Shown piece by piece: positions 3,123 to 62,573 of a stretch of DNA of 64,000 nucleotides. Under the pieces are notes generated by a model that saw nothing but the letters and a program-made list of their open reading frames with translations, had not been told where the DNA came from and ran no database searches. The stretch lies in contig CAWHSG010000001.1 in the NCBI GenBank assembly GCA_963831955.1, positions 903,140 to 967,139 on the forward strand, in the 5' to 3' direction. Made by a program: the position numbers and the translations under genes. Within the stretch, counting starts at the first letter, position 1, and each line of letters opens with the position of its first letter. The stretch is from an uncultured Acidobacteriota bacterium. GTDB taxonomy: Bacteria > Acidobacteriota > Terriglobia > Acidiferrales > UBA7541.

Positions 3123-3182
3123 CGGCGGCGGTAGGGCTCGTGATTCGACCCAAGTAACGATTGTGCCTGTGCTAGGCTGAAG

Positions 3183-40776: not shown

Positions 40777-43431
40777 TTAAGTCTTCGCGTCGCCCTCGGG
40801 AGTTTCTTCTTCTAGGATTGCGGCGGCTGCGGCTACGCGGTCGCCTTCATCGAGGCGCAGCAGGCGGACGCCTTGCGTGGAGCGGCCGGCTTCGCGGATC
40901 TCGCCGGAGTGGACGCGGATTACCTTGCCTTGGCCGGTGATGATCATTACGTCGGAATCTTCCTTCACTTGCAGCGCGGCAACTACCGGGCCGTTGCGAT
41001 CGGTGGACTTGAGATTGATCACGCCTTTGCCGCCGCGCGACGTGACGCGGTATTCGGCTAGCGGGGTGCGCTTGCCGTAGCCCTTTTCGGCTACCGTGAG
41101 CATCAGTGAGGTTAGCGATTCGCGGATTTGATCGCTCTCCAGTTCGTCGAGATTGTCGGTGGTCTTCTTGAATTCTTTTTTGATGATTTCGAAGTCGGGC
41201 TGCACGGCGTCCATACTCACTACGTAATCATCCTTCGCTAGGTCCATGCCGTTCACGCCGCCGGCGGCGCGTCCCATGGCGCGCACTTCGGTTTCGCGGA
41301 AGAGGATGGCTTGGCCGTCGCGGCTCGCCAGGAAAACCATTTGCTTGCCGTCGGTGAGCTTTGCGCCGATCAGCTCATCCTTGTCATCGAGGCTGATGGC
41401 GATGATTCCCGAGGGACGCGGATTCGAGAATTCTGCTAGCTCGGTTTTTTTCACCGTGCCGTTGCGAGTGGCTAGGAACACGAAGCGATTTGCTTCCTCA
41501 AGATTTCTTGCCGAGACGACGGCGGTCAGCGTTTCGTTTTCCTGGAAGCGTACTAGATTGCTGATGGCCTTTCCTCGAGTGGCGGCTGCGGCTTCGGGAA
41601 TTTCGTAAACCTTCAGCCAGTAAATGCGGCCTTTCGAAGTGAACAGTAAAATATAGCTGTGCGCCGAGGCCACGAAGAAATGCTCGACGAAATCTTCTTC
41701 GCGTGTGCGCGCGCCGATGCGGCCTTTGCCGCCGCGCGACTGGTGGCGATAGACATCCACCGAAGTGCGTTTGATGTAGCCGGCGTGACTCACGGTGATG
41801 GCCATTTCTTCGTCTTTGATCAGGTCTTCGAGCTTGATTTCTTCGACGCGGTCCACGATTTGCGTGCGGCGCTCATCGCCATAGAGCTTCACTACTTCGC
41901 GTAGCTCGGCGACGATCACGCTGCGCAGTTTCTTTTCGCTGGCCAAGATTTCGCGCAGCTCGGCGATGCGGGCGCGGATTTGCGCGAGTTCCTTGAGGAT
42001 GTCGTCCACGGAAAGCTGCGTGAGGCGGTGCAATTGCAATTCGAGGATGGCATCAATTTGGATGTAAGTGAGGCCGATGTGCTCGACGCGCGCCGCCCCT
42101 GCGATTCCATATTTCTTATGATCGAGCTTCACACCGCGAACCGTGGTTTCTTTTCCTCCGACGAGGACGCGCACAGAACGGTTCTCGAAAAATTCGAATA
42201 AATTCTGGCGCGCGGCGGCGCGGCTGGCCGACCCGCGGATCACCTTGATCACATCGTCGATGTAGTCGAGCGCGATCTGATAGCCGAGCAAAATGTGCTC
42301 GCGCTCTTCGGCCTTCCGCAAATCGTATTGCGTGCGGCGGCGCACCACGTCCACGCGATGTTCGATAAATAGATGAAGCAATTGAACGAGACCCAGCTCG
42401 CGCGGCTGGCCGCCGACGATTGCCAGCAGAATCATTCCGAAGGATTCCTGCAACTGGGTGTGCTTGAAAAGATGATTGAGAATGATTTCCGGCTCTTCGT
42501 CGCGCTTCACTTCGATGACGATGCGCATGCCGTCGCGGTCGCTTTCGTCACGAATGTCGGCGATGCCTTCGATTTTTTTCAATTGGACGAGTTCGGCGAT
42601 GTGTTCGATGAGCCGGGCCTTGTTCACTTGATACGGCAGCTCGGTGACAACGATGTCCTGGCGATCCTTGCCGCGCGCTTCGATGGCCACTTTCGCGCGC
42701 ACCTGGAAGGTGCCACGGCCGTTTTTGTAGGCCTGCTCGATGCCGTCGCGGCCGTAGATGTAGCCGCCCGTCGGAAAATCCGGGCCGGGAACGAGCTTCA
42801 TCACCTGTTTCAGAGTGGTTTCCGGATTTTCGATCAGCAAGATTGCGGCTTCTACAGTCTCCTTCAAATTGTGCGGGGGTATATTTGTGGCCATGCCGAC
42901 GGCGATGCCGCTCGAGCCGTTGACCAGCAAATTCGGAATCTTGGTGGGCAGGACGGTGGGTTCCTGCGTGCTCTCGTCGAAATTCGGAACGAAATCGACG
43001 GTTTCCTTCTCGATGTCAGCGAGCAATTCCTCGGCAATTTTAGAGAGCCGCGCTTCTGTGTAACGCATGGCCGCGGGAGGATCGCCGTCCACCGAACCGA
43101 AATTTCCCTGGCCGTCGATGAGCGGATAACGCATGTTGAAGCCCTGCGCGAGACGCACCAACGCGTCATACACAGGCGAATCGCCGTGCGGATGAAACTT
43201 GCCGAGCACTTCGCCGACGATCTTGGCGCACTTGCGATACGGCTTCGTCGAAGTTAAGCCCAGCTCATACATGCCGAAGAGAATGCGGCGATGCACGGGC
43301 TTCAAGCCGTCGCGCACATCGGGCAGCGCGCGGCCGATGATTACGCTCATGGAGTAATCGAGGTACGACTTCTTCATCTCCGCTTCGATATCTACCGGCA
43401 GGAGAATTGATTGATTGGGTTCGTCAGTCAT
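40777..43431 (-). CDS. gyrA: DNA gyrase subunit A
   Basis: [29 protein letters not shown], the QRDR-like [26 protein letters not shown], and C-terminal beta-pinwheel repeats. Confidence 0.95.
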
Positions 43432-43482
43432 TTATGCCTCGTTGCGAAATTAAATTCCGGCCGCGCGGGCCGAGCCCGGTCG

Positions 43483-43722
43483 CTACTTTTGGTCCAACAC
43501 GTGACTTTTTACTGCCTCGAACGCGGAGGCGTTATTCGAAAAACGAATCGGCGCGAAATGCGCTTCGAGACGCGCTAGGAATGCCGCGCACTCGGCTTCG
43601 TCTGCACATTCGAACGCTACGCCGCGCTCCACGTCCGGCGAGCTGGTCGGCGTTGCCTTGAAATCGGAGCACGAAAGCCCGCGCAAGCCCGGCAGCGTTT
43701 CCCAATTGAGCTGAAACATCAT
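43483..43722 (-). CDS. small hypothetical protein
   Basis: 79-aa ORF filling the gap between the PPOX-like gene and gyrA on the same strand. No family recognised. Confidence 0.35.
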   Translation of the reverse strand: MMFQLNWETLPGLRGLSCSDFKATPTSSPDVERGVAFECADEAECAAFLARLEAHFAPIRFSNNASAFEAVKSHVLDQK

Positions 43723-43753
43723 TCTGTTCGCGAAGCGATCCGCGCCGCCGGCG

Positions 43754-44299
43754 TCAAAATTTCCAGCGCGTGGCCGACACCGGAAAATCGCGCTCCTGCC
43801 AGGCGAACGCTACGCGCGGCTTCATGGCCACGATGTACGGTGTTCCAGGCGCGTCGGTAAGTTTCATTTTGTATTTCTTCTTATAAGCGGCGTCGATGGC
43901 GGCGATCTCGGCCGCGTCTGTGATTTCCTGCGCCGCACATTCGAGAATTACCGCGTCGTCGCCGCTTTCGAGATGCACGATCGCGACGGGTTGACGCTGA
44001 AGGTTGCGCGCCTTGCGCGAATTCCGATCGGTGCCGAAAATTAATGCGCCATCGAGCCATACGCCCCAGACGGGCATCGAGTGCGGCCGGCCATCGGGCC
44101 GGGCTGTTGCGATCCAATAGTTCTTGGATTTCGTCAACTTGGCACAGACGTCGTTCCAGGCGATGAGTCCTTTGCCGTCGGGCTTGATTCCGTAGCTTTG
44201 GGCGAAGGCCGGCCGGTCTCGCGGCGGTTCGGGTGCTGCGTCCGGAACCGTTCGTCGTTGGGCCGGCTTTTTTGCCTGAGCTTTTTTTTTCGCGGCCAT
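43754..44299 (-). CDS. pyridoxamine 5'-phosphate oxidase-like FMN-binding split-barrel protein
   Basis: YWIATARPDGRPHSMPVWGVWLDGALIFGTDRNSRKARNL. Basic N-terminal tail. Confidence 0.65.
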   Translation of the reverse strand: MAAKKKAQAKKPAQRRTVPDAAPEPPRDRPAFAQSYGIKPDGKGLIAWNDVCAKLTKSKNYWIATARPDGRPHSMPVWGVWLDGALIFGTDRNSRKARNLQRQPVAIVHLESGDDAVILECAAQEITDAAEIAAIDAAYKKKYKMKLTDAPGTPYIVAMKPRVAFAWQERDFPVSATRWKF

Positions 44300-44333
44300 T
44301 TAATTCATCCTTGTCGCTATCGAGCCAGCGCTT

Positions 44334-47003
<2,670 letters not shown>

Positions 47004-47232
47004 TTAAGTGCCGGTCTGGAGGAATCCCGAGACCAACGACGAACGCAGAAATTTTAACCGATTCGGGCGGATTTCTCAAGGCGATTTTTGCGACTGGAAC
47101 GCTGTATGACCTTTTATTTTCAATGGTTTACAGGGCGGATGTAGCCGTACGTAAATGTACGGATGCGGCGAGGATAGCGCCAAGCCCAATGGCCAATTTA
47201 ATCGTGAAAAAGATCGGTGCGGCGAACGAAAA

Positions 47233-48345
47233 TCAAATGCGCATGGGCATTACTACGTAGCGGTAGCGCGCGGCTTCGTCGGCTAGCGGGCGGAGTTGCC
47301 CGGCGGATTGTTCGTCTTTCAATTCAAAAGCGATCGGCCCGTCAGCTGCGGCCGCTAGGAAATCGAGAATGTATTGTGCGTTGAAACCGATCGAGAGCGG
47401 CTCGCCTTTATATTCTTTTTCGATGGCTTCTTTCGCTTCACCGTATTCGGGACTCGATGCGGAAATTTCGATAGCTTCTTTCGCCAGCGTGAATTTCACG
47501 GCGCGGGACCGCGCATCGGCGAGTTGCGAAACGCGGCGCAGCGCGTCATTCAGTTCGTTGCGCTCGAGCACTACGGTTTTGTTCGCATCGCGCGGCAACA
47601 CCGCTTCATAATTCGGGAATTGGCCGGTGAGCTTGCGCGACGTGAGCAGCCGACGGCCGAATTGGAAAAAGAGGTGGCTATCGTCCTGCGCGAAATCCGC
47701 GAGCGCGTCGTCGGCCGAGCCGCCCACCAGCCTGGAAATTTCTGACATCGCTTTCTTCGGTACTAGAACGCGCACTTCACTACTCAGCCCGTCGAATTTC
47801 TGGGTGGTCTCGACCATCGCCAGTCGGTGCCCGTCGGTCGCGACCATGGTGATCGAATCCGGCTTCAGCACCAATAGAGCGCCATTCAATGTGTAACGGG
47901 ACTCTTCAAGTGAAATTGCAAACGTGGTTTTCGCGATAAGGTCATTCAAAGTGGCCGCGGGAATTTTGACCAACACATGTGGGAATGATGGGAGGACCGG
48001 AAAATTTTCGCGCGACATCCCGACCATCTTGTAATTCTTTCGGTCGCAACTAATCTGAATCCAATGATTATCGAGTAGCTTGAACTTAATTTCTTCGTCG
48101 GGCAACAGCCGCACTAGATCGAGCAATTTTTTCGCGGGAATTGTGCCCGAACCATCCTTCTTCACTTTCGCTTCGCACGAGGTGCGAATGCTCAGTTCTA
48201 GATCTGTGGCCGTGATCGACAGGCGATTGCCGTGCGCCTCGAAAAGAATATTCGAGAGGATGGGGATAGTCGTCTTGCGTTCGACCACTCCCTGCGTCAG
48301 CTCGAGCTCCTCAAGGAGATCGAATTTCTTCACGCTGAATTCCAT
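47233..48345 (-). CDS. dnaN: DNA polymerase III beta subunit (sliding clamp)
   Basis: MEFSVKKFDLLEELELTQGVVERKTTIPILSNILFEA, ending YVVMPMRI. ATG 48345 has a GAGGA RBS, whereas ATG 48399 has none. Confidence 0.9.
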   Translation of the reverse strand: MEFSVKKFDLLEELELTQGVVERKTTIPILSNILFEAHGNRLSITATDLELSIRTSCEAKVKKDGSGTIPAKKLLDLVRLLPDEEIKFKLLDNHWIQISCDRKNYKMVGMSRENFPVLPSFPHVLVKIPAATLNDLIAKTTFAISLEESRYTLNGALLVLKPDSITMVATDGHRLAMVETTQKFDGLSSEVRVLVPKKAMSEISRLVGGSADDALADFAQDDSHLFFQFGRRLLTSRKLTGQFPNYEAVLPRDANKTVVLERNELNDALRRVSQLADARSRAVKFTLAKEAIEISASSPEYGEAKEAIEKEYKGEPLSIGFNAQYILDFLAAAADGPIAFELKDEQSAGQLRPLADEAARYRYVVMPMRI

Positions 48346-48467
48346 ATCCGTCTGTCCTCGCGCTGCGTCTTTGGTGACTTGCGTTCCGGTTGAGCTCATA
48401 GTGTAGGCCTACTCTACAGCTTTTCTTCTTTAGGATAAAGATAAGACCCCGCCGTCGTCGCCGCAAC

Positions 48468-48627
48468 TGTGGAAATTGCGGATATCGCGCCAGGCTGCTG
48501 AGCCGGGGAGGGTTGAGCCACTTGCGAAGCTGTGGATGAAAATTTCACGCCGAGGAATAAACGCCGAACCGCCGCCACGTCCAAGTTCATAGCCCGGGAG
48601 TCCCGCGAATTGCACAGCCCGTCCACA
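48468..48627. promoter_or_regulatory. DnaA-box-like 9-mers in the dnaA-dnaN spacer
   Basis: TGTGGAAAT (48468), TGTGGATGA (48531), AATTGCACA (48608) and CCGTCCACA (48619). Confidence 0.5.
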
Positions 48628-48676
48628 GCCTATGAACAGGCCGCCCGCCGCCGCACGAGCCTGCCGCGAGCTAAAC

Positions 48677-49984
48677 TCATCCGAACGAGTCGAGTAGCCT
48701 GTTGATAGTCTTGTTCAAATCTTTGTCCACGCGCCGCAGGTTCTCGATCTTGTGGATCGAGTGCAGCACCGTGGTGTGATGCTTGCCGCCAAATTGCCGG
48801 CCGATTTCCGGCAGCGACGCAGAGGTGAGCTGCTTCACCAGGAACATTGCTACCTGGCGCGGGAAGGCGATCACTTTCGAATTCGAGCGCACTTTCAAAT
48901 CCTGAGCGCGCAACCCGAAATGTTCTCCGACGCGCTTCTGAATCTGCTCGATGGTGACTTTCTTTTCCTGGATCTCGATAATGTTCTTAAGCACCTGCTG
49001 CGCCGTCCCGAGATTCACTTCCGCCCCGGTGAGCGACGCAAACGCAATCAAGCGAATCAGCGCGCCTTCCAGCTCGCGCACGTTCGACTTAATCGAGCGC
49101 GCGATGTATTCGGCCACGTCATCAGCCAGGCGAACCCGCTCACTCTCGGCCTTCTTCTGCAAAATCGCGATCTTGGTCTCAAGATCCGGCGGCTGAATAT
49201 CCGCGATCAAGCCCCACTCGAAACGCGAGCGCAACCGCTCTTCAATCGCCGAAATCTCCTTCGGCGGGCAATCGGAGGAAATCACGATCTGTTTTTGCTG
49301 ATCGTAGAGCGCGTTGAAGGTATGGAAGAATTCTTCCTGCGTCCGCTCGCGCGTGGCGATGAATTGGATGTCGTCCACCATGAGCACGTCCATGGTGCGG
49401 AAGCGATCGCGGAAGGTGCTCATGCGATCGAAGCGCAGTGAAGCAATCACCTCGTTCGTGAATTTCTCGGCGCTCACGTAGGTGAGGCGCAGCGACGGGT
49501 TGCGCTTCTTGAGGGTGTGCCCGATGGCCTGCATCAAGTGCGTCTTGCCCAACCCCACTCCGCCGTATAGGAAAAGTGGGTTATAGGACTTCGAAGGCTG
49601 ATCGGCAACGGCCTGAGCGGCGGCATGGGCAAACTGATTCGATCCGCCCACCACAAATGTGTCAAAAGTGTAGCGAGGATTGAGCTGATGGCTGACCGAA
49701 TCGAAATCCAGGCGAGCCTGAGAGGCAGGAACCCCTTCCTGCCCGTCCTGTTCTACGCAGATGTACTCAATCCGCGCGTTCTCCATCCCGACTTCCACCA
49801 GAACACCCTGCAGAATCTGCCCGTAAGTCTCGGTAAGCCGCTTGCGGAATAGCCGGGTAGGCACGCGCACGACAATGCGGCCCTCATCGGCACTCTCGAG
49901 CCGCGTGGGACGAAACCAGGTGTTAAAACTATGTGGGTTTACCCGGCGTTCCACATGGTGCAGGATCCGATCCCACTGATTCAT
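48677..49984 (-). CDS. dnaA: chromosomal replication initiator protein DnaA
   Basis: MNQWDRILHHVERRVNPHSFNTWF, Walker A GGVGLGKTHL, Walker B LMVDDIQF, sensor motifs and the domain IV segment RQVAMFLVKQLT...IGRQFGGKHHTTVLHS. The start is set to ATG 49984. Confidence 0.95.
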   Translation of the reverse strand: MNQWDRILHHVERRVNPHSFNTWFRPTRLESADEGRIVVRVPTRLFRKRLTETYGQILQGVLVEVGMENARIEYICVEQDGQEGVPASQARLDFDSVSHQLNPRYTFDTFVVGGSNQFAHAAAQAVADQPSKSYNPLFLYGGVGLGKTHLMQAIGHTLKKRNPSLRLTYVSAEKFTNEVIASLRFDRMSTFRDRFRTMDVLMVDDIQFIATRERTQEEFFHTFNALYDQQKQIVISSDCPPKEISAIEERLRSRFEWGLIADIQPPDLETKIAILQKKAESERVRLADDVAEYIARSIKSNVRELEGALIRLIAFASLTGAEVNLGTAQQVLKNIIEIQEKKVTIEQIQKRVGEHFGLRAQDLKVRSNSKVIAFPRQVAMFLVKQLTSASLPEIGRQFGGKHHTTVLHSIHKIENLRRVDKDLNKTINRLLDSFG

Positions 49985-50017
49985 ACCAATGCCAACCCTT
50001 CCGGCCATTCCCACAGG

Positions 50018-50382
50018 CGTGGAAATGATGTGGAAATCCCGCATTTTGGGTTTCACCGGCGCTGACTCATCAGCCCGGACCCTGCGGGAGCGATATCAAA
50101 TCGCTTTCAGTGCAAAGGAGCGGTTAGGTCCCCAAGACCGCAATCACCCGAGGAGTGCGTGACTCCGTACGACGCCCGTAATGCGAGGCGGGATTGTGCA
50201 TAAAAGAATGGTTAAGGGCAAGAGAAAATTGAGCGAAGCCCATGCACAGCTTTCACATGCTATGCACAGGATTTCCACAGCGTCAAAATGGTACGAAATG
50301 CTCGATTTTTTCAACATTCGTTGAGAAAACGCGCACAAGGGCAGTGGAAAACTCCGGCGGAGAATTGCACAGGTGCTTGACA
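50018..50382. other. candidate oriC / dnaA promoter region (DnaA-box cluster plus AT-richer stretches)
   Basis: 9-mers CGTGGAAAT (50018), TGTGGAAAT (50029), TTGTGCATAA (50194, rc TTATGCACA), CCATGCACA (50240), CTATGCACA (50260), ATTTCCACA (50271) and AATTGCACA (50362). AT-richer segments lie around 50198..50236 and 50285..50332. Confidence 0.55.
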
Positions 50383-52451: not shown

Positions 52452-52859
52452 GAATTTGGGCCCACGAACCAGCCTAGCCAAAAAACAAGCCAAGGCCCGC
52501 CGAATATAATCACAGCAATATTTTAGATCTGGAAATTACAGCGGAGGAAGTCCACTTCGCCGTGCAGTGCTAGACCCTGAACCCCACGAATAAGTGGGTG
52601 CCCTGCGCCTGCTTTCAGGCTTTCCCGTACCGGCGGAACCGGCGAGGACATGCGCAACGGCAGGACGACGGGGGCTCCCGGGGATCCAGTGTTGGTTCAA
52701 ATAGGCCGTCACACCGGCACCTGCGTCGCAGGCCGCCTCCGCGAAACATTGTAGCAGGAATCATTCGGGCGACGCTGCGATGGCGCGCCATGAGCGGAGG
52801 TATCACCCGGAGGCGGTTTTGGTGTCCGCCTCCGGGTAAATTGCCGCACCGACTCGCGG

Positions 52860-55700
52860 CTAGAAGTGGAAGCCGACCTCGGCGCTAAACGTCCGGGGCG
52901 TCACATAATGCGTGCCGCTGAAGGTGGAGATGAAATTGTAAAGGGCTTCTTTGTTGGTCACATTGACGGCAGTAAGACGCAAGCTCCATTTGTATCGGTC
53001 GCCACGGAACAGGTTGTCCTCTCCCAACGCTAAATCAAACAGGTTCCGCGACGCTATGCGGGGCGGGTTGTGGTCGTCGTTCTCCGTCCCCGGCGCCGGA
53101 ATCGAAACGTACTTCGCACCGTAGCTCGCAGCGGGACACAGATTGACCCCCAAAGACGAGCTGATTGGCGTAGTCGGTGTCGCAAAGACCCCTCCGCAGA
53201 ACAGCCCGGCCTGGAACTGCTGGTCCGGTGTGATTATCGAAGTGTCCACTACGCTGTCACTCCCCATCGGTCCGTTGGCGCAGTTGCCTCCAGCGCACGG
53301 CACCGGACCTGCCACCAGCCCGCTGTCAAACCGCCAGTTGAAACCGAGCCAGGGCCCGCGTTTCCATGGTTGGTATTGCATGTGAGTGGTCTGATTAAAC
53401 TTCTCGTCGTGGTCGATGCGGAACACCGAGCCTGCCACTCCCGGTGTGGCCCCAATTCCACTGACCTGTGGACCAAAGAAACGCGCCGCCACGCTCGACA
53501 TCACCACGTACGCCGTGAACCCGTGCGTTTCCGGTACGCTCAAGCGAATAGCGTATCCAGGGATTTTCGAACTGGCCCACTCGATGGGATACGTGATCGG
53601 CGTATCGCCGAGCACGCTGAAGTCGAACGCCTTGTGCGTGTACTTCCAGATGTACTCGCCGTCGAAGACCAAGTATTTTCCAAACGCCTGTTCCAGGCCG
53701 GCGTGGAACTCATTGCGATGCCCTGGGCTTAGCGGCGGTATCGTCGGGGATACGCACGCTCCGCCGGCTACGGCTTCTTGTAAATCAAAGATCACCGGAT
53801 TATTGCAGCCGGTGCTGGCCAGGATCAGGTTTTCGTTGAACGGCGTCTCCATGGTCCGCGCATAGGAAACGCGCAGCACGGTATTGGTCTGCTTGATGTT
53901 GTATGCGACGCCTAGTCTTGGCTCGAGTTGCTGGGCGCTCGCGATGCCGTTGTAGAAGTCCGCCCGCAAGCCCAGGTTCCAGGTCCAGTTCTTGTAGGTG
54001 ATGGAATCTTGAGCGTACAAAGCCTCCTCTTTAATGTCTGTGTGGCCATTGAAGGTGAAAATACCGCTGGAGGTCTGCCCCGCTGGACAGCCGTCCGATG
54101 TTGGCAGCGAAGCCGTTCTCGTCAGGTCGAAGCAGCCCAAAAGGGGTAGAAATCCGGGATTCGCGGAGCCGCCCGGATTGCCAATCCCGCCGCAAGCTCC
54201 GGGATCGGTGATAGCCGGGTTGGTATTGAAGGTTCCATCTGCATTCAAACAAACCGGATTAACACCAGGGTCCACAATCCCGAAATGGTCATGCTCATCC
54301 AGGAAGGTATGCTCGAACGAGACTCCCGCCTTCACGTTGTGCATTCCCTTGACATAAGAGATTACCGCGCGGCCTCCGGCATTCAGCAACGCGCGATTCT
54401 GAGCGACGGTTTCCTGCTGCAGGTCGGGTGACAAATCAGCGAAAGGATTCGCGCTCGGGTAATAGTTGTATTGATCTCGTCGCACCCATCCCCCCAGCGT
54501 GAAGACCGTCCGTGAATTGATCAGGCGCGTCCACGAAGGAGCGATATTGAAAGTCCCGATCTTCGAGCGCTGGTCCTGAACCCCTACCGGTTCGCCGTCT
54601 GCTCCCAGGCCTCCGCAATTACCGATCTGCCCTACTGGGCAGACGGGGTCGATCGCATTAAAAGTCCAACCCGTTGCGTTTTCAGCGTCGAACGAGTTTG
54701 GCGTTTGAAACCAGGAGCGGCTGTAGCCAAAGTTGAAACTAAGGGTGTCCGCCGTTGAAAACTTGTAGTCCACACGATCGAATAGGTTTTCCTCGTTGCC
54801 TTTGTCGTGCATGACCACAAATTCCGGACCGTCCAGAAATCGCCCGGTATTTAGACCGTTAGCCGAGATGAAGTTTCCCCACTTGTCATTGCCGTACCCT
54901 AAATCAAATCCTGCGTATGCCGTCCCAAACGATCCGTACGAAGACGTCACTGAGCCATGAGCCGGGTTGACACCCAAGCCCGACCGGGTGGTAGCCACGA
55001 TCACCAGGCTGGTCTTGCCCCCAAACTCGGCCGGCGGCGCTCCCTCGATTACTTCCAGGGATTGCACCGAATCTACGGGAAGCTGATTCGAGAACACTTT
55101 GCTTTGCTGGTCGGTGATCGGCTGTCCGTCAATCGAAAAGGAGTTTGACGCGTGATCGCCCAGTCCGTGAAACAATCCGTTTGAGTCTGCAGCGACCCCC
55201 GGAGAAGCCAACGTCACCAGCGAGCTGAGTGACGAAGACGTGCTCTCGAGCGGCAGCTTCTCGAACAGCCCACGATCCACGTCCGTATGCGCCGTCGAGT
55301 CCGTCTCGATCAAATCGCCACCGTTGGACTCTACGGTCACCGTCGTCGAGGTGCCCGCAATCTGCATGGCGATCTGCAGCGTTACCGGCACCGACGAACG
55401 CACCTCCACATCCTCCGTGTAAGACGCGAATCCCTTCGACGTCACCACCAGGTGGTAAGGATTGAACGGCACGTTTTCAAATTTGAACGAGCCGTCCGAG
55501 CCCGTCGTGGCGTATCGCGTGTAGCCGCTTACAGGATTCGTAATTTCCACCGATGCGCCCGGGATCACTGCGCCCGTCGCGTCCTTCACATTGCCACTGA
55601 TCGAGGCTGCGTTTGCTCCTTGCGCGCGGGCCGTGCTTGCGGATAGCGCCGCCCCTGCGGCCAAAGCCAATACCAATACACTTCTAAGAATCCCTCGCAT
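52860..55700 (-). CDS. TonB-dependent receptor-like outer-membrane protein with N-terminal CarboxypepD_reg domain
   Basis: Signal peptide. SISGNVKDATGAVIPGASVEITNPVSGY...GSDGSFKFENVPFNPYHLVV, a plug-like region, a long beta-barrel and the terminal motif EVGFHF. Confidence 0.8.
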   Translation of the reverse strand: MRGILRSVLVLALAAGAALSASTARAQGANAASISGNVKDATGAVIPGASVEITNPVSGYTRYATTGSDGSFKFENVPFNPYHLVVTSKGFASYTEDVEVRSSVPVTLQIAMQIAGTSTTVTVESNGGDLIETDSTAHTDVDRGLFEKLPLESTSSSLSSLVTLASPGVAADSNGLFHGLGDHASNSFSIDGQPITDQQSKVFSNQLPVDSVQSLEVIEGAPPAEFGGKTSLVIVATTRSGLGVNPAHGSVTSSYGSFGTAYAGFDLGYGNDKWGNFISANGLNTGRFLDGPEFVVMHDKGNEENLFDRVDYKFSTADTLSFNFGYSRSWFQTPNSFDAENATGWTFNAIDPVCPVGQIGNCGGLGADGEPVGVQDQRSKIGTFNIAPSWTRLINSRTVFTLGGWVRRDQYNYYPSANPFADLSPDLQQETVAQNRALLNAGGRAVISYVKGMHNVKAGVSFEHTFLDEHDHFGIVDPGVNPVCLNADGTFNTNPAITDPGACGGIGNPGGSANPGFLPLLGCFDLTRTASLPTSDGCPAGQTSSGIFTFNGHTDIKEEALYAQDSITYKNWTWNLGLRADFYNGIASAQQLEPRLGVAYNIKQTNTVLRVSYARTMETPFNENLILASTGCNNPVIFDLQEAVAGGACVSPTIPPLSPGHRNEFHAGLEQAFGKYLVFDGEYIWKYTHKAFDFSVLGDTPITYPIEWASSKIPGYAIRLSVPETHGFTAYVVMSSVAARFFGPQVSGIGATPGVAGSVFRIDHDEKFNQTTHMQYQPWKRGPWLGFNWRFDSGLVAGPVPCAGGNCANGPMGSDSVVDTSIITPDQQFQAGLFCGGVFATPTTPISSSLGVNLCPAASYGAKYVSIPAPGTENDDHNPPRIASRNLFDLALGEDNLFRGDRYKWSLRLTAVNVTNKEALYNFISTFSGTHYVTPRTFSAEVGFHF

Positions 55701-55846
55701 TTTTCCTCCGTACCCCTGCCCGGGGCGGTATGTGGTAATGGATCGTGGAGTCGCCGCCGCTCCTGGAAATGCAAATCCAAAAGAGCGGAAGCGCCGGCGC
55801 GCGCGTAACGCGGCCGGTGGACGATCTTCAGTTGACTTAGTTGGAG

Positions 55847-56164
55847 TTAGGCAGAGGGAGGCGCGCGAGAGGAATGATCGGAAATCAGCAGCTCAAGATC
55901 GGGCGTGCGAATTTCGCAGGGCACCCCATGAGCCACCAAAACCAAAACCGGAGCTTTGACGACGGTAGCCGACTTAATCGGCGCATTATGCGCGATGTGG
56001 CAAACTGGGCAGGCCGCGTCCGAGCTTCCCGCGTGATGATGCGCGAGAGTTGACTCGGTGGCCATGAACAGCAGCGCGAATATCGCCAGGCAGACGAATA
56101 TTACTTGTGCCCTGCGGTGCGCCGGGTTGGCCCAAGACTTCATGTGCTTGTCACTATACCCCAC
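55847..56164 (-). CDS. small membrane-anchored Cys/His protein (HHH...ACPVCHIAH), paralog of 61864..62148
   Basis: One N-terminal hydrophobic helix, a His cluster, a CxxCH motif and a C-terminal RAPPSA. It lies 71 nt downstream of czcA on the same strand. Start is uncertain (GTG 56164 or ATG 56143). Confidence 0.55.
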   Translation of the reverse strand: MGYSDKHMKSWANPAHRRAQVIFVCLAIFALLFMATESTLAHHHAGSSDAACPVCHIAHNAPIKSATVVKAPVLVLVAHGVPCEIRTPDLELLISDHSSRAPPSA

Positions 56165-56235
56165 AGATGCCCATTAGACGCTAAAAGCTGCAAGAGGTTT
56201 GCACTAATCGTCACGCGCCTCCGGGCCGCCATCGC

Positions 56236-59200
56236 CTATACCTGCAAAACATCGCCTTCGCGAGCTACCATCTGGTAGAGCACTGGGCTCACGATGCGTC
56301 CCAGGAATAGCCGCGAGATCAGTCCCGCCACAATCACGATCGCAAACGGTTTCTGCGAGTCCGAGCCTACGCCAGTGGAAAGCGCCGCGGGCAGCAAACC
56401 GAGACAGGCCACCAGCGCCGTCATCATGATCGGCCGCAGCCGGATCAACGATCCATCGAGCGTAGCCTCGCGGATGCCCTGGCCTTCGAGGCGCAGCTTA
56501 TTGATGTAGGAGACGTCGATGATCGCGGTCTCCGCCGAGACGCCCATGAGCACCAGCAAGCCGAGCACTGACGAGACGCTAAACGTCGTGTGCGTAAGTT
56601 TCAGCGCCAGCAGCGCGCCAACCGGCTCGGTCATCACCACTCCAATCAGCACGGTGAGCGGAAACTTAAAATTGCCGTAGAGCGCGAAGAGGATGACAAA
56701 TATCAGCAGAACGGCGAGCGGGCCGATCAGCGCAAATTGGTCGCGCGAGGCAACATATTCACTATATTCGCCGCCCCAATCGAGGCGGTAGCCCTGCGGC
56801 AACTTAACCGATGACTGCACGGCTTTCTGCGCCTCGTTCACCGCGCGCGCCAGATCGCGCCCTTCAATACTGAATTGCACCCCGATGTAGCGCGAATTAT
56901 TCTCGCGGTAGATGAACGATGCCCCGTTGCCCTGATGAATGGTAGCCAGCTCGGAAATCGGAATCTGCTGCCCGGAAGGCGTCGGCACCAGCAAATTGCT
57001 GATGGCGTGCTCGCTCGAGCGATACTCGGGCTTCATGCGCACCACTAAATCGAACAACTGCTCGCCCTGGATCACTTGTGTGGCCGCTTGCCCGCCCACC
57101 GCCGCCTGAATCACTCCTTCCACGTCGGAGACATTGATCCCGTAGCGCGCGATTTTTTCGCGGTCCACGTCAATTTGCACGCTCGGCTGGCCCAGCTCGC
57201 GGACCACGGTGAGTTCGGTGAATCCGGGTACTTGCTGCAGCACGCGCTTAATCTCGACGGCTTTGTCTTCGAGTGTTTGCAGATCTGGCCCGTAGATTTT
57301 CACCGCCAGCGCGCTCTTCAAGCCCGTCAGCGCTTCATCTACGGCGTCTTCGGCCGGCTGCGTGAAGTTGAAAATCACGCCGGGATACGATTCCACTTTT
57401 TTCTGAATGTCTTTGGTCAGCTCGGCCTTGTTGTGAATCGATCCCTTCTTCCACAGCGCGTCGTTATAAGGTTTCAACCCGACATAAAATTCGCAATTGA
57501 AGAACCCGGTGGGATCGGTGCCATCGTCGGGGCGCGCCAGCTCCGAACCAACTTCAGTGACCATCGGGTAGGACATCAAGATCTTGCGGATCTGCGGCGC
57601 GAATTTAGCGGCCTCCTCGAAGGAAATGGTGTAGGGCATAGTAGCGCGCACCCACATCGCCCCTTCGTCCAGGTGGGGCATAAACTCGCCGCCGATGAAG
57701 GGAATCAGCAGCAGCGAAGCGAGGAAAATGATGGTGGCAAACACCATCGTTAGATTCGGGCGGTCCAGGCACCAGCGCAGTTCCGCGGCGTATTCGTCCT
57801 TGAGCCATTCATATGCGCGGTTTACATTTTCCTTCACGCCGTGCGTGAACCAGTAGGAAGCCAGCACGGGCACAAGTGTGAGCGTCAATAGCAACGAGCC
57901 CAGCAGCGCCCACGACATCGTTTCCGCCATGGGGTGGAACAGCTTGCCGGAAGGACCAGTCAGCGCGTAGATGGGAATGTAACCGGCCAAAATCACGGCG
58001 ATGGAATAAAAAATCGGCCGGTCCACGTCCCGCGCTGCCGCGATGATCACTTCGTGCAGGCTGTACTCTTGCCCGTGCCGCGCCGCGAGCTCCCGGTAGA
58101 TGTTCTCCATCATCACCACCGTGCCATCGATGATGATTCCAAAATCGATTGCCCCAATCGAAAGCAGATTTGCCGGGATTCCGCGACCGTGCAGAAATAT
58201 GAATGAGAACAACAGGCTCAGCGGAATCGTCAGCGCAACTATCACCGCTGCCCGCACGCTGACCAGAAAAAAGATCAGCACGATAAACACCAGCGCCATG
58301 CCCAGCAGCAGGTTGTGCTCCACCGTGTCGACGGTTACCTGCACCAGATCGCTGCGGTCATAGTAGGGGTGAACTTTCACGTCCGGCGGCAGAAGATCGC
58401 GGTTAATTTCCTTCGTCTTCTCTTCCACTCGCTTGAGCACGTTTTGGGTCTGCTCGCCGGTGAGCATGAGGATGACGCCCTCGACGCGGTCGTCATCATT
58501 CTGGAATCCGAATTCGCCCAGGCGCGGCGCATGGCCGATGGTGACTTCGCCGATGTCCCGGATGCGCACCGGAACGCCATTGTTGTTCCCCACCACAATT
58601 TGGCCGATGTCTTCGGTCCTATTCACCAACCCGAGTCCGCGCACGTAGAAAAATTGCGAGCCCTGCGAATAAAAGCCGCCGCCGGCGTTGGCGTTGTTGG
58701 CCGCGAGCGCATTCAGCACTTGCGGCAAAGGAATGTGGTAGCTGTAAATCTTGGCGGGATCGAGCAGCACCTGATATTGCATCACCGTGCCGCCAAATCC
58801 CGAATCGTCAGCCACGCCCGGCACGGACTTGTAAGCCCGCTCAATCACCCAGTCTTCGAAGGTTTTTAGCTCTTGTGGAGTGCGGTCCGGACTGTCGATC
58901 ACGTAGCGGTAAACCAAATTCGACGGGCTCGAAAGCGGCGCCAAACTGCCCGTCACTCCGGGGGGTAACGTAGCGTCCGAGAGCCTTTCAAACACCACCT
59001 GCCGCGCGAAATAATTGTCCGTGTCGTCCTGAAACGTCATGATCACGTCGGACAATCCATACAGCGAGATCGAGCGCATGAACACCATGTGCGGCACGCC
59101 GTTCATCTGCAGCTCGATCGGCAGCGTCACCAGCCGCTCGATTTCCTCGGCCGCGTGCCCGGGCCACTGGGTGATCACTTCCACCAGAGGCGGTGAAAGA

Positions 59201-59322
59201 TCCGGGTAAGCGTCCACAGGCATGCGCTGAAACGAAATCGCGCCGGCAATGACGATGAGCACAGCCATCATCAGCACAAGAAAGCGCTGCCGCAGAGCAA
59301 ATTGAACGATGCGATGAATCAT
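56236..59322 (-). CDS. czcA: heavy-metal efflux RND permease, CzcA/CusA family (CzcA-like)
   Basis: 1028 aa. N-terminus MIHRIVQFALRQRFLVL...YPDLSPPLVEV. The TM4 signature AIDFGIIIDGTVVMMEN matches the DFG-DG-VEN motif of divalent-cation HME-RND pumps. Confidence 0.85.
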   Translation of the reverse strand: MIHRIVQFALRQRFLVLMMAVLIVIAGAISFQRMPVDAYPDLSPPLVEVITQWPGHAAEEIERLVTLPIELQMNGVPHMVFMRSISLYGLSDVIMTFQDDTDNYFARQVVFERLSDATLPPGVTGSLAPLSSPSNLVYRYVIDSPDRTPQELKTFEDWVIERAYKSVPGVADDSGFGGTVMQYQVLLDPAKIYSYHIPLPQVLNALAANNANAGGGFYSQGSQFFYVRGLGLVNRTEDIGQIVVGNNNGVPVRIRDIGEVTIGHAPRLGEFGFQNDDDRVEGVILMLTGEQTQNVLKRVEEKTKEINRDLLPPDVKVHPYYDRSDLVQVTVDTVEHNLLLGMALVFIVLIFFLVSVRAAVIVALTIPLSLLFSFIFLHGRGIPANLLSIGAIDFGIIIDGTVVMMENIYRELAARHGQEYSLHEVIIAAARDVDRPIFYSIAVILAGYIPIYALTGPSGKLFHPMAETMSWALLGSLLLTLTLVPVLASYWFTHGVKENVNRAYEWLKDEYAAELRWCLDRPNLTMVFATIIFLASLLLIPFIGGEFMPHLDEGAMWVRATMPYTISFEEAAKFAPQIRKILMSYPMVTEVGSELARPDDGTDPTGFFNCEFYVGLKPYNDALWKKGSIHNKAELTKDIQKKVESYPGVIFNFTQPAEDAVDEALTGLKSALAVKIYGPDLQTLEDKAVEIKRVLQQVPGFTELTVVRELGQPSVQIDVDREKIARYGINVSDVEGVIQAAVGGQAATQVIQGEQLFDLVVRMKPEYRSSEHAISNLLVPTPSGQQIPISELATIHQGNGASFIYRENNSRYIGVQFSIEGRDLARAVNEAQKAVQSSVKLPQGYRLDWGGEYSEYVASRDQFALIGPLAVLLIFVILFALYGNFKFPLTVLIGVVMTEPVGALLALKLTHTTFSVSSVLGLLVLMGVSAETAIIDVSYINKLRLEGQGIREATLDGSLIRLRPIMMTALVACLGLLPAALSTGVGSDSQKPFAIVIVAGLISRLFLGRIVSPVLYQMVAREGDVLQV

Positions 59323-59340
59323 TTAGACTACGGTTTCCCC

Positions 59341-60513
59341 TCAGCGCTGCAGCGAATTCTGGAATTGCAGGAATAAGCTGCCGTCGCCGACCACGTGATC
59401 GTTTGCCTGCAGCCCGGTGAGGATTTGTGTTTTTCCGGCCTGGCTTTCGCCGAGCGTCACGCCGCGCCGCGCAAACTGGCTGTTCCCTGTTTGCAGATAG
59501 ACGTACGGCATGTTCTGGTCGTCGCGCAGCACCGAGGAATCAGGGACGAACAGCGCATTTTGAATCACGCCGGCTCGGACTTCGGCACTCACGTACATTT
59601 CCTTCTTCAAACGCTCGCCCGGATTCGGTGCTTCGATCCGCGCTTGCAGCGTCCGCGTATTGGGATCGAGCGCGGGAGAAATATATTGGATCCTTCCGCT
59701 CACAGCCGTCGGATACGATTCGTTGGTGATGGTCACGGGATCGCCCACATGTACGTACGCCACGTCCTTCTGGTAGATGTTCACCAGAATCCAGACCGAA
59801 CTCATGTCTGAGAGCGTGAAGCATTGCGTCGCTCCGGCGGCCAGCAATTGCCCCACGGAGCACTCTTTGTCCACCACCTCTCCAGCCACCGGCGAGTAGA
59901 GCGGAATTTCCGCCGAGGCGGGCTTGCTAACGATCGAGTCCGCGTCCGCAATGCCGAGAATATGGATGGCGTCGGTGCTGGCCTCGAAGTCCGCGCGCGC
60001 CTGCTCGCGGGTTGATGCCGCTTGCTCGAGGTCGGCCTCGGCAATGGCGTGGTGCGCGTAGAGATCCTGCGCGCGGACGTAGAACCTGTCCGCGAGCTGG
60101 TAGGCATCGCGAGCCTTGATATAAGCCGAGCGCAGCAGTGAGTAATCCGGGCTGGCCACGTAAAGCATCGGCTGCCCGGCGCGCACATGCTCGCCCGGCG
60201 CCACCACCACCCGGCTCACCGGCCCGCCTATCTGCGTAATCACCGGCGTAGTCTTGAAGTCGTTGTACTCCACTGCACCAGTCAGCCGCAGCGTGCGTGC
60301 CAGCGGCCCCTGCGCCACCGTCACCACCTGAATGTGAGACATCTGGTCGGCAGGCAGCGAGAACAATTCCGCTTTAGCGTCCGCACTTTCCGCGGTCGAG
60401 TACGAAGTCATCTTGCTGGCCTGATCTCCCGATCCGCACCCGGCCAGCGCCAAGCTCAGTGCCGACACCAAGATCGCCCCGTTGCATCGCCTTGAGCGTG
60501 TTCCCGTTTTCAT
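59341..60513 (-). CDS. czcB: efflux RND periplasmic adaptor (membrane fusion) lipoprotein, CzcB-like
   Basis: Lipobox LALAGCGS. Barrel-sandwich hybrid and coiled-coil hairpin pattern. It lies 18 nt upstream of czcA. Confidence 0.8.
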   Translation of the reverse strand: MKTGTRSRRCNGAILVSALSLALAGCGSGDQASKMTSYSTAESADAKAELFSLPADQMSHIQVVTVAQGPLARTLRLTGAVEYNDFKTTPVITQIGGPVSRVVVAPGEHVRAGQPMLYVASPDYSLLRSAYIKARDAYQLADRFYVRAQDLYAHHAIAEADLEQAASTREQARADFEASTDAIHILGIADADSIVSKPASAEIPLYSPVAGEVVDKECSVGQLLAAGATQCFTLSDMSSVWILVNIYQKDVAYVHVGDPVTITNESYPTAVSGRIQYISPALDPNTRTLQARIEAPNPGERLKKEMYVSAEVRAGVIQNALFVPDSSVLRDDQNMPYVYLQTGNSQFARRGVTLGESQAGKTQILTGLQANDHVVGDGSLFLQFQNSLQR

Positions 60514-61787
60514 GGCAAGTTCCTTGACCCCACAGCTTCGCGGAGCTGCTCGAGCGCCGTCTGGTAAGACGCGAGAGACTGCCGGTACGCGAGCTCGACG
60601 GCGCGATAGCTGCGTTCGGCATCGAGAAAGTCGAGCAGGCTCGCGGCGCCGCGTTTATAGGCGTACTCGCTGATATCGCGCGATTCCTTGGCTGCATCGA
60701 GATAGCCGGTGCGATAGAGCTTGATGATTTGATCGTTCGTCTGCAGATTCTCGTACGCGTTCACCACATCGGTCAGCACCTGCTCCTGCGCCGCCTTCTC
60801 CGTTTCCTGCGATTGGCCGATCGCGTAGCGTGTCCGCGCGATTTCTCCCTGATTGCGGTTGAAAATTGGCAGCGGGATGCTGAAGAACAAAGAAACCGAG
60901 CTGAGGCCCGAGGTATGCGAGTAATCCGCCCCGGCGGTCAGGTCTTGTTTGGCGATGGACTTCTGCACTTCGTATTGGCTCTGCGCCGCGGTCACGCCCT
61001 GTTGCGCCGCGCGCAAATCCGGGCGCTGCCGCAACGCCATCGCCTCTAGATCGTCGCGCTTCGCTTGCACCGGCTGGTAATCGAGTTCTCCGGCCACGTC
61101 GTAGTCCGCGGGCACGGATTCAAACCCAAGCTGTTGCCGCAGCGAAATCAGCGCCTGCACTTTCGCCAGCTGTGCTTGGGAATAGTCGGTCTGGAACTGA
61201 AGAAGCTGCAGCTTGATCTTGAGGTAGTCGCCTTCGCTTATTCCGCCCGCTTTCAATTGGGCTTCGCTGATGTCCACAGTGTTCTGAAAGCTCCTTACGT
61301 CCTGCTCGGCCAGCGCCAGGGTGGACTCCGCAAGCTGCACGCTGACGAAATCCGACGCCACAAGAAAAGTCAGCGCCCTCTCGTTATCCGCCACCTGCGA
61401 TTTCGTCTGCGCCGTAACATCCAACGCCGCCTGCAAGCGGTGCTGCCGCTTCCGTCCGATCTCGAAGAGGTAGCTCAGCCCGATATCGAATTGCGCGTTC
61501 TGGTCGAAGTAAGTCGTACCCACCTGGGTGGGCTGAAAGAGAGGCAGGAACTGCGCGTCCCATGAAAGCACCGGATTGGGCCGCAGATTGGCAGTGATCT
61601 CTTCTGCCTGCGACTGCTGAATCGTCGAGCGCTCCGCCTGCAAAGTGTGGTTATGATCGAGCGCCAGCTTTATGGCTTCATCAAGCGTAATCCGCACCGG
61701 CCCCTGGGTCTGTCCCAGAGCTGCAACCGCGCTCGCTCCAAAAATAAGCGCCGATAGCGCCACAAAACCAGTTAGTCGTTTCCACAT
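60510..61787 (-). CDS. czcC: TolC-family outer membrane efflux protein, CzcC-like
   Basis: Signal peptide, two OEP repeats (LTLDEAIKLALDHNHTLQA...) and a 4-bp overlap with the adaptor gene. Confidence 0.8.
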   Translation of the reverse strand: MWKRLTGFVALSALIFGASAVAALGQTQGPVRITLDEAIKLALDHNHTLQAERSTIQQSQAEEITANLRPNPVLSWDAQFLPLFQPTQVGTTYFDQNAQFDIGLSYLFEIGRKRQHRLQAALDVTAQTKSQVADNERALTFLVASDFVSVQLAESTLALAEQDVRSFQNTVDISEAQLKAGGISEGDYLKIKLQLLQFQTDYSQAQLAKVQALISLRQQLGFESVPADYDVAGELDYQPVQAKRDDLEAMALRQRPDLRAAQQGVTAAQSQYEVQKSIAKQDLTAGADYSHTSGLSSVSLFFSIPLPIFNRNQGEIARTRYAIGQSQETEKAAQEQVLTDVVNAYENLQTNDQIIKLYRTGYLDAAKESRDISEYAYKRGAASLLDFLDAERSYRAVELAYRQSLASYQTALEQLREAVGSRNLP

Positions 61788-61863
61788 AGAACCACCATTC
61801 TTGAAGTGGAATAGAAAAGTAAATCAGCGCGCCCGAATCGGCGCAGGATTTCTAACGGAAGAG

Positions 61864-62148
61864 CTAAACCGAAGGCGGAGCGCGTGCAGGAACGCGGTGA
61901 ATATCTGGAGCAGATTGAAACGCCGGCAGAACCGCTTCAAAGTTTCGTCCCACGGGCGCAAGCACCGGCAAGCGGTGTCCGTCCAATGGTTTATCGGCAG
62001 CCTGATGGCTGTAATGGCAAACCGGGCAGGCTCGTTCGGAGCCGTTGCTGTGAGTATGCCAAACGCTGCCAAACGTGCTGCCAAAAATCAACAGGCTGAC
62101 GAGTGCCAGCGACACAATCACCAGCCGAATTTTCCGTTCGGATGCCAT
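61864..62148 (-). CDS. small membrane-anchored Cys/His protein (HTH...ACPVCHYSH), paralog of 55847..56164
   Basis: N-terminal helix IRLVIVSLALVSLLIFG, HTH, a CxxCH motif and C-terminal RAPPSV. It lies 76 nt upstream of czcC on the same strand. Confidence 0.55.
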   Translation of the reverse strand: MASERKIRLVIVSLALVSLLIFGSTFGSVWHTHSNGSERACPVCHYSHQAADKPLDGHRLPVLAPVGRNFEAVLPAFQSAPDIHRVPARAPPSV

Positions 62149-62255
62149 TCTCTTTACAGCAGGACCAACCGCGCGGGCCCACGTGTTTCAGTGTATCTAA
62201 GATGCAGAGACCCGGAAAGCGTTGTGTTTCCAGTGGTAGCCATCGCGGCATGCTG

Positions 62256-62573
62256 CTAAGCAGACTGTTCGAGGGCCTTTTCCACCATGGTCACACACTT
62301 CTCGACGCGCTGCTGCAGCGGTCCTTGAATCGCTTCCAGACGCCCCTGAACCGTGTGCAGCTCGTCGGCAATATTCAGCGCCGCCAGCACCGCTACACGC
62401 ACCGAGTCCACCGTGTGCGTCGCCTCCGCCACCATTCGCATCTTCGCGTCCACAAACGCCGCGAGTTCCTTCAGTTGCTCTTCATTCCCATCAGCGTGCA
62501 CATTGTAAGCTTGCCCGTAAATTTCGATCTTCACGCGATTCTCCCCGCTGAGCCGAAGATATTCTCCGGCCAC
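62256..62573 (-). CDS. zapA: cell division protein ZapA
   Basis: VKIEIYGQAYNVHADGNEEQLKELAAFVDAKMRMV...VAVLAALNIADEL. Confidence 0.8.
   Translation of the reverse strand: MAGEYLRLSGENRVKIEIYGQAYNVHADGNEEQLKELAAFVDAKMRMVAEATHTVDSVRVAVLAALNIADELHTVQGRLEAIQGPLQQRVEKCVTMVEKALEQSA

Follow-up and report, generated by a model that had tools for sequence, protein, structure and literature searches.

Two small open reading frames (ORFs), ORF A and ORF B, lie beside a czcCBA operon for heavy-metal efflux in a 64,000-nt stretch of the genome of an uncultured Acidobacteriota bacterium (contig CAWHSG010000001.1, positions 903,140 to 967,139; the whole stretch is hereafter called the window). Profile evidence places both ORFs among the DUF2946 (CruR/CutF) proteins, and we consider it probable that they are cis-acting regulatory leader peptides of this kind, which sense metal and arrest the ribosome at a C-terminal RAPP motif. 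At this locus and its relatives, we observed coding constraint on both peptides, the motifs at their spacing together with profile membership, a nearly invariant order of leader and target genes, and a covarying hairpin in the spacer behind ORF A.

Two conserved small ORFs

ORF A (61864..62148, minus strand) is an upstream ORF of 94 aa with a hydrophobic N-terminal helix, a Cys/His motif and a C-terminal RAPP followed by SV and the stop codon. Its stop (61864) is separated from the ATG of czcC (61787) by 76 nt. ORF B was first described as a 105-aa frame (55847..56164, minus strand) with a GTG start at 56164, which lies 71 nt past the czcA stop (56236). Because its homologues are almost all 98 aa long and begin at an internal ATG at 56143 (MKSW...), the gene is probably 55847..56143 and starts 92 nt past czcA. 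In a BLASTP comparison, the two products were paralogues with 34% identity across ~95 residues (E = 4e-13). The initial annotation had thus placed both ORFs correctly, had measured both distances correctly, and had rightly called them paralogous over their whole length; only the start of ORF B probably has to be moved.

Both ORFs are real, conserved genes and not chance frames. Word-indexed searches returned 8 close relatives of ORF A and 39 of ORF B, all from metagenomes or metagenome-assembled genomes (MAGs) and all named only 'hypothetical protein'. The motifs were retained in orthologues at 59–93% identity. Against orthologues with 59–82% amino-acid identity, dN/dS was 0.17–0.26 for both ORFs, and therefore the peptide sequences are under purifying selection. 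When 1.84 billion representatives were searched exhaustively with a profile, 325 proteins (representative clusters) matched at E ≤ 1e-3, and nearly all of these matches extended to the protein C terminus. Relatives repeated the gene order zapA, small ORF, outer-membrane efflux protein (OEP), membrane fusion protein (MFP), resistance-nodulation-division (RND) pump, small ORF, and large outer-membrane gene, and all 11 recovered genome loci were Acidobacteriota MAGs. Conservation in related genomes, which had been left to be checked when the ORFs were initially annotated, therefore extends to the motifs, the coding constraint and the acidobacterial synteny.

Some B-type copies have escaped annotation, and others are degenerate. 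In the loci L002 / L005, a B-type leader (13952..14248, plus strand) was missed by the public gene call, which instead placed an ORF of 75 aa on the other strand, and such leaders are therefore under-annotated. A degenerate B-type copy, P0045 (contig CAWJBU010000012.1, the contig of L008), keeps the HHH cluster and RAPP without the CPVCH segment, and P0046 and P0047 are B-type copies with a frameshifted look. These copies might be natural leaders that have lost their sensor or are decaying, or else errors of assembly.

A Cys/His motif at a fixed distance from a C-terminal RAPP

Nearly all intact members of the family have a common layout: a basic N terminus, a hydrophobic helix, the motif (W/H)-H-x-H-x7-C-x-x-C-H-x-x-H, and a C-terminal RAPP. 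The putative metal-binding motif of ORF A (62005..62058, minus strand) reads H31-x-H33 ... C41-P-V-C44-H45-x-x-H48, and that of ORF B (55988..56041, minus strand) reads H35-H36-H37 ... C45-P-V-C48-H49-x-x-H52. In the alignment of relatives, C41, C44, H31 and H33 of ORF A were invariant or nearly so. The family logo showed both Cys of the CxxC in 118 of 118 relatives and the flanking His in 87–90%. The His directly after CxxC was present in 103 of the 118, and Q, L or A stood in its place in the other 15.

The RAPP codons, at the predicted ribosome-arrest site, are located at 61873..61884 (minus strand) in ORF A (R89-A90-P91-P92) and at 55856..55867 (minus strand) in ORF B (R93-A94-P95-P96), in both cases 2 residues from the stop. 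Among 104 sequences, the R and both P of RAPP were invariant and the A was at least 90% conserved, and 102 of 123 members had 1–2 residues between RAPP and the stop. The distance between CxxC and RAPP was 44 intervening residues in ORF A, in ORF B and in 109 of 123 relatives, and 41–45 in the remaining ones save one. Both RAPP and the 44-residue distance held across relatives with less than 50% identity. The initial annotation had recorded the shared HTH/HHH cluster, ACPVCHxxH, PVL and C-terminal RAPPS(V/A), all of which are present; the meaning of RAPP as a ribosome-arrest motif had gone unrecognised.

RAPP has been documented as an arrest motif, the P site of the stalled ribosome being occupied by the third motif residue; both RAPP and RGPP tend to be avoided across bacterial proteomes (PMC10987492, PMC12992588). 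Within the window, no Pfam-supported gene contained RAPP or RGPP, which outside the two small ORFs occurred only in unsupported short or overlapping frames.

A hydrophobic core follows the basic residues, with Kyte-Doolittle 15-residue maxima of 2.9 and 3.1 for the ORFs of 94 and 98 aa, respectively. AlphaFold predicted a helix at residues 2–29 and an extended chain after it, with no globular domain (predicted template modelling score 0.40). A profile search of the PDB gave matches at chance level only, and an NCBIfam search gave no match for either ORF.

Divergent members of the DUF2946 family

The initial annotation could assign the pair to no named family, and we found that Pfam DUF2946 (PF11162) fits. 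ORF B matched it with E = 0.0059 and 17.8 bits, under the curated cut-off of 23.7 bits, and ORF A alone had no Pfam match. Among 104 relatives, DUF2946 was the only recurrent Pfam family, matched by 33 at E ≤ 0.01 with a best value of 4.8e-7, and two members, P0078 (25.9 bits) and P0116 (24.5 bits), passed the cut-off. Every DUF2946 match placed the part from CxxC to the C terminus on profile positions ~52–117 of 117. The family profile that retrieves the DUF2946-matching members also matches ORF A and ORF B.

What defines DUF2946 is CXXC and RAPP at a conserved distance of ~45 residues (PMC9426467). Its members have been described as upstream ORFs: the nascent chain detects metal and halts the ribosome at the C-terminal motif, which governs the following gene in cis. 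ORF A and ORF B have the traits of this family, namely CXXC, a near-C-terminal RAPP, the ~45 spacing, an export-type N terminus and a length of less than 150 aa. Both also hold its typical position, upstream of a same-strand metal-homeostasis gene, with a short to medium spacer.

Part of this is known already. A survey of 5,334 CutF-like proteins found that the commonest downstream neighbour was an RND outer-membrane factor (CusC/CzcC/SilC), followed by TonB-type genes (10.1101/2022.11.11.516240), and TonB-dependent receptors and metal-homeostasis genes are enriched downstream of small ORFs with RAPP or RGPP (Fujiwara 2025, PMC12992588). The word 'Efflux' is absent from the main text of the 2025 survey (PMC12992588), and RND-linked RAPP leaders have therefore been described mainly in the context analysis of the CutF paper. 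Earlier publications cover this type of element and its motifs, how it works in two model organisms, and both dominant contexts (RND OEP and TonB-dependent receptor). According to the initial annotation, a match to a characterised family would remove the novelty of the pair; the match found, DUF2946, is to a partly characterised one. What is new is an acidobacterial subfamily that is mostly under the Pfam threshold, has an extended His-rich motif and has nonetheless retained the CxxC-44-RAPP ruler; the placement of a leader for an exporter next to one for a receptor; and, in the spacer, a covarying hairpin flanked by a conserved motif. For annotation, hypothetical small ORFs by czcCBA and TonB-dependent receptor genes would be read as DUF2946-type leader peptides and not as accessory pump subunits.

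Each small ORF belongs with the gene downstream of it

The presumed targets of leader A are the three genes of the pump, all on the minus strand: czcC (60510..61787), which encodes an OEP matching PF02321; czcB (59341..60513), an MFP matching HlyD_D23 and RND_mfp; and czcA (56236..59322), a CusA/CzcA-family RND protein matching TIGR00914 with 892.9 bits (cut-off 701). The czcA product carries DFGIIIDGTVVMMEN, and the DFG...DG...EN motif is present. The initial call of a CzcCBA-type heavy-metal RND system was borne out by this match, by DFGIIIDGTVVMMEN and by the adjoining MFP and OEP genes. The DFG...DG...EN motif, together with matches of the CzcB, NccB and Ihp types, suggests divalent cations as the substrate of the pump.

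The presumed target of leader B encodes a TonB-dependent-receptor-like outer-membrane protein of 946 aa with CarboxypepD_reg and Plug domains (52860..55700, minus strand), and lies 146 nt from ORF B on the same strand. Directly past the stop of the receptor gene is a strong stem-loop, ACCCGGAGGCGG-acaccaaaa-CCGCCUCCGGGU (52822..52855, minus strand), which is probably the terminator of the leader B-receptor transcript.

We scanned metagenomes with the A-like motif C[PSQ]ICHL[SN]HQ and recovered 80 loci. The next gene encoded a CzcC-type OEP in ~68 of the 69 A-like loci that had enough downstream sequence, and no detectable czcA lay upstream of the A-like leaders in these loci. A CarboxypepD_reg+Plug receptor gene was found 106–146 nt downstream of the B-type ORF in every locus examined. 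One locus (L012) contained the B-type leader and receptor pair alone, beside a catalase-peroxidase gene and without an RND gene, and two others (L014, L015) had a P-type ATPase gene between czcA and the B-type leader-receptor pair. Since A-like leaders precede CzcC-type genes and B-type leaders precede receptor genes even where there is no pump, each leads its own gene. The two ORFs therefore do not bracket the pump or jointly serve it, as had been proposed in the initial annotation. Their adjacency in the window reflects a small metal-homeostasis island made of an efflux unit and a receptor unit.

Divergent leaders (P0078, P0058, P0088 and the L049 pair) were also upstream of receptor genes. 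In the P0078 loci (L096–L098), a DUF2946 leader and its receptor gene directly followed znuA and an ABC-3 permease gene, and the leader-receptor pair of L097 was itself followed by genes for a CsoR/RcnR-type repressor and a P-type ATPase. The ZnuA context suggests zinc, or a different divalent metal, as the metal of the receptor-type leaders. L049 contained tandem RAPP-ending family ORFs (3075..3611 and 3680..4060, plus strand) before a single TonB-dependent-receptor-like gene, which may be a double-leader arrangement.

There was no two-component system or cation diffusion facilitator (CDF) gene among the annotated ORFs of the window. The initial annotation had offered, among other options, periplasm-facing metal sensors that supply the missing regulation, and this comes close to the explanation that we favour. 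The locus is a compact natural example of an efflux pump and an outer-membrane receptor, each with its own paralogous leader and with no two-component or MerR-type regulator nearby.

RNA features of the two spacers

The spacer between leader A and czcC (61788..61863, minus strand) is 76 nt long. We compared 59 non-identical leader-czcC spacers, typically of 65–90 nt, and found a common order: the stop codon, ~17 nt of pyrimidine-rich sequence, a GC hairpin of 6–8 bp, a conserved CCGAUUCAC motif that is mostly unpaired, a second pyrimidine-rich tract, a GAAGG-type Shine-Dalgarno sequence (SD) and the ATG. The conserved hairpin, U-GCGCC / GGCGC-G in the window (61828..61845, minus strand) and GUGCC/GGCAC in most relatives, starts ~19 nt past the leader stop and has a predicted pairing probability of ~0.9. 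It was entered by hand into the 59-sequence alignment before covariation was tested, and RNAalifold returned no structure on this alignment, in which the loop columns are gappy. In the test, column pair 50:95 was U-A in 32 loci and C-G in 19, and the covariation score was 0.270 against 0.184 ± 0.015 in shuffles; none of 500 shuffles reached the observed value, and slid registers gave 0.14 at most.

Directly 3' of the hairpin lies a mostly unpaired motif (61819..61827, minus strand), which is CUGAUUUAC in the window with the consensus CCGAUUCAC (columns 98–106 of alignment A7) and is shared by most of the leader-czcC spacers. The motif could serve for pausing or for the binding of a protein, and the hairpin itself may be a pause, attenuation or stability element. 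Further downstream, in the clade to which the window belongs, a local hairpin, CCAC-UUCAAGAAU-GGUGG (61792..61809, minus strand), holds the SD-like GGUGG of czcC; it is CCGC...GCGG in the relative L006. The SD and start codon were usually predicted to be paired (~0.85), with partners spread over both pyrimidine tracts.

The spacer between leader B and the receptor gene (55701..55846, minus strand) is 146 nt long and strongly structured, with a minimum free energy of -59.8 kcal/mol and an SD, GGAGG, at 55705..55709. It contains a GC-rich hairpin, CCGGCCGCG-UUA-CGCGCGCGCCGG (55794..55817, minus strand), for which RNAalifold on 8 loci found compensatory changes: several stem pairs still pair after two-sided changes (GC/AU, CG/GC). 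The 3' end of ORF B and the spacer behind it have an excess of C over G (C 0.38–0.42 vs G 0.15–0.23), which is weaker for ORF A. An intrinsic terminator in this spacer was considered and rejected, as the U-rich tract folds into a second hairpin. A consensus scan found neither a promoter nor a canonical terminator in either spacer, and there was no Rfam match in 55500..62400 even at E ≤ 1.

RNAalifold on 7–8 close relatives proposed long-range pairing of the RAPP codons with the downstream SD and start codon. Pairing between the leader 3' end and the SD found no support when 63 diverse loci were compared: the duplex energies were no better than those of ORF-interior segments, dinucleotide shuffles or mismatched locus pairs. 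A retest with only 14 nt after the stop gave a weak signal in A-type loci (mean z -0.27, p ~0.03) and a strong one only in the divergent receptor-type loci L099 (z -5.0) and L101 (z -3.7); the window had z ~-0.1.

A metal-sensing leader model and its relation to CruR and CutF

In the model that we favour, the N-terminal hydrophobic helix of the translated leader would target the nascent chain to the membrane. Elongation would then arrest at the C-terminal RAPP, with the ribosomal P site on the first Pro codon and the A site on the second. At this point, the WHxH-x7-CxxCHxxH motif, 44 residues upstream, would be just clear of the exit tunnel and the translocon and able to bind metal, and its occupancy would alter the duration of the arrest. 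The dwell of the ribosome at the leader 3' end would set how strongly the following gene of that mRNA is expressed, such that leader A would control czcCBA (efflux) and leader B the TonB-dependent-receptor-like gene (probable uptake). We expect metal to prolong arrest on leader A and turn the pump on, as in CutF, and to relieve arrest on leader B and turn the receptor off, as in CruR and possibly through Rho, because induction of the pump and repression of the receptor by metal would make physiological sense; both polarities exist in the family. Candidate metals are Zn/Co/Cd/Ni or Cu, and candidate couplings are unmasking of the SD, Rho-dependent termination, and pausing or attenuation at the spacer hairpin.

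CruR (BP2923) of Bordetella pertussis is a DUF2946 upstream ORF of the TonB-dependent transporter gene bfrG, and its function needs both RAPP and CXXC (Roy et al. 2022, PMC9426467). Copper, sensed via the CXXC of the nascent chain, relieves the RAPP arrest and leads to Rho-dependent termination before the transporter gene (PMC9426467); the arrest has been shown in vitro (PMC12992588). ORF B resembles CruR in its exported type, CXXC, near-terminal RAPP and ~45 spacing (45 in CruR), in the TonB-dependent receptor downstream on the same strand, in a long structured spacer (162 nt in CruR, 146 nt in ORF B) and in the C>G bias of the leader 3' end. They differ in that CruR has 145 aa and is proteobacterial and copper-specific, whereas ORF B has 98 aa, is acidobacterial, carries HHH-x7-CxxCHxxH and matches DUF2946 with a sub-cut-off 17.8 bits. 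Also unlike in the CruR system, the gene downstream of ORF B encodes a receptor of the CarboxypepD_reg+Plug type, with no PepSY gene after it.

CutF of Rhodobacter capsulatus controls cutO through a signal peptide, a Cys motif and a C-terminal Pro motif (10.1101/2022.11.11.516240). Its polarity is opposite to that of CruR: copper prolongs stalling during co-translational export and so unmasks cutO's ribosome-binding site (Ozturk et al., 10.1101/2022.11.11.516240, 10.1101/2025.02.05.636593). ORF A shares with CutF a Sec-type N terminus, a Cys motif, a spacing of ~45 residues to a Pro-rich stalling motif, and a spacer of less than 100 nt with a stem-loop, and CutF-like genes, like ORF A, are most often found before genes for RND outer-membrane factors. 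CutF has CxxxC and a PPP-type motif involving EF-P, whereas ORF A and ORF B have CxxC and RAPP. The CutF stem-loop masks the SD of cutO; in contrast, the conserved A-type hairpin contains no SD.

If the leader model is right, metal sensing by a nascent peptide that stalls the ribosome, the mechanism of CruR and CutF, would extend to the Acidobacteriota, a major and poorly studied soil phylum. A bolder version is also conceivable, in which the paralogous sensors form a reciprocal two-leader switch, with the same Cys2/His-rich site and opposite polarity (exporter on, importer off), and the A-type spacer element (the hairpin plus unpaired CGAUUCAC, absent from Rfam) is a new pause or attenuator RNA module whose coupling is unlike the SD-masking stem of CutF. 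We regard this combination as unlikely, and offer it as a speculation. The covarying spacer hairpin and its flanking motif provide a defined target for the coupling of arrest to expression.

Several points weigh against the leader model. Arrest, metal binding and sensing, and cis regulation would carry over to ORF A and ORF B by homology with characterised relatives, and the same holds for the polarity. Membership in DUF2946 comes from family-level, transitive evidence, given that ORF A lacks a Pfam match and ORF B is under the cut-off. RAPP by itself is insufficient for arrest, and the preceding residues matter (literature on RAPP arrest). A consensus scan found no promoter for either leader. 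At the window locus, pairing of the leader 3' end with the downstream SD is not supported. A ribosome stalled at RAPP would not extend to the conserved A-type hairpin: with Pro91 in the P site, it would cover the mRNA to about the stop codon and therefore could not melt a hairpin that starts ~19 nt beyond it. Finally, CzcI, which belongs to the same family according to the literature, is reported to be periplasmic and to act in trans, quenching CzcCBA.

Alternative explanations

The last point leads to the alternative that survives best, although we judge it distinctly unlikely: ORF A and ORF B would be CzcI-like accessory proteins, stable, membrane-anchored or periplasmic and metal-binding, which act in trans on CzcCBA as chaperone, gatekeeper or quencher and in which RAPP is a protein-level feature. 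Both ORFs combine an N-terminal hydrophobic helix with a Cys/His cluster, the peptide between the motifs is under purifying selection, and ORF A sits where czcI sits, directly upstream of czcC, as do CzcI / CzcI2 in Cupriavidus metallidurans. This likeness in position holds for ORF A only, as ORF B goes with the receptor gene and not with the pump. CzcI is reported to fall in the DUF2946 similarity network (sequence similarity network cluster 20) and to have no C-terminal proline motif (10.1101/2022.11.11.516240), whereas ORF A and ORF B keep an invariant RAPP; CzcI was compared by its description only. An invariant RAPP by the stop at a fixed 44-residue distance fits a tunnel and translocon ruler and not a folded domain, no globular fold is predicted, and CruR and CutF are undetectable as mature proteins (PMC9426467; 10.1101/2022.11.11.516240). 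The stable chaperone or gatekeeper envisaged in the initial annotation would leave both the RAPP and its spacing unexplained.

Less likely still, the ORFs could be leaders that stall at RAPP and monitor Sec/YidC translocation capacity or the thiol-redox state, with an indirect link to metal. The classical RAPP arrest peptides ApdA, ApdP and the RQH class, which monitor protein localisation at Sec/YidC via pulling force, resemble ORF A and ORF B in having a C-terminal RAPP, an N-terminal localisation signal, a small size and a place upstream of the regulated gene (Sakiyama 2021; PMC10987492; PMC12992588; Morici 2024, PMC10951233), and differ from them in what they would sense. ORFs with RAPP are likewise found upstream of genes for DsbA and thioredoxin. 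A CxxC pair could also report disulfide formation. The genes downstream of the ORFs studied here are almost exclusively of the heavy-metal RND or TonB-dependent-receptor type, often by ZnuA, P-type ATPase and CsoR/RcnR-type genes. In addition, the His-rich surroundings of CxxC suggest metal ligation, and in CruR and CutF the copper response is mediated by the Cys motif.

Tiny membrane-anchored mono-heme c-type cytochromes, which the initial annotation had also raised and which would carry heme at CPVCH for a redox or metal-reduction role near the pump, are hardly credible: CxxCH in both ORFs and most relatives, an export-competent N terminus and further His nearby would suit them, whereas 15 of 118 relatives carry another residue in place of the CxxCH His, with the Cys pair invariant, a cytochrome Pfam match was weak and found for 1 of 104 with no NCBIfam match or PDB relative, no globular heme pocket is predicted, and RAPP and its fixed spacing would have no explanation.

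Other features of the window

The 450-nt gap between the receptor gene and ymdB contains a 6S (SsrS) RNA gene (RF00013, 52545..52737, minus strand), which scored 50.8 bits against a gathering threshold of 46.4. The genes dnaA (48677..50056), dnaN (47233..48399), gyrB (44334..46868) and gyrA (40777..43431) were grouped in 40777..50056 on the minus strand, and the chromosomal replication origin is therefore probably close to the metal locus; a coarse GC-skew table showed no clear switch around this cluster. Elsewhere in the window, there was a DDE transposase gene of an insertion sequence (24407..25675, minus strand). An extracytoplasmic function (ECF) sigma factor gene, accompanied by an anti-sigma gene (zf-HC2/DUF4349), and a pair of adjacent genes with TonB_C domains were also found (1222..3122, plus strand; 4649..6465, plus strand), and the products of this TonB_C pair could energise the receptor.

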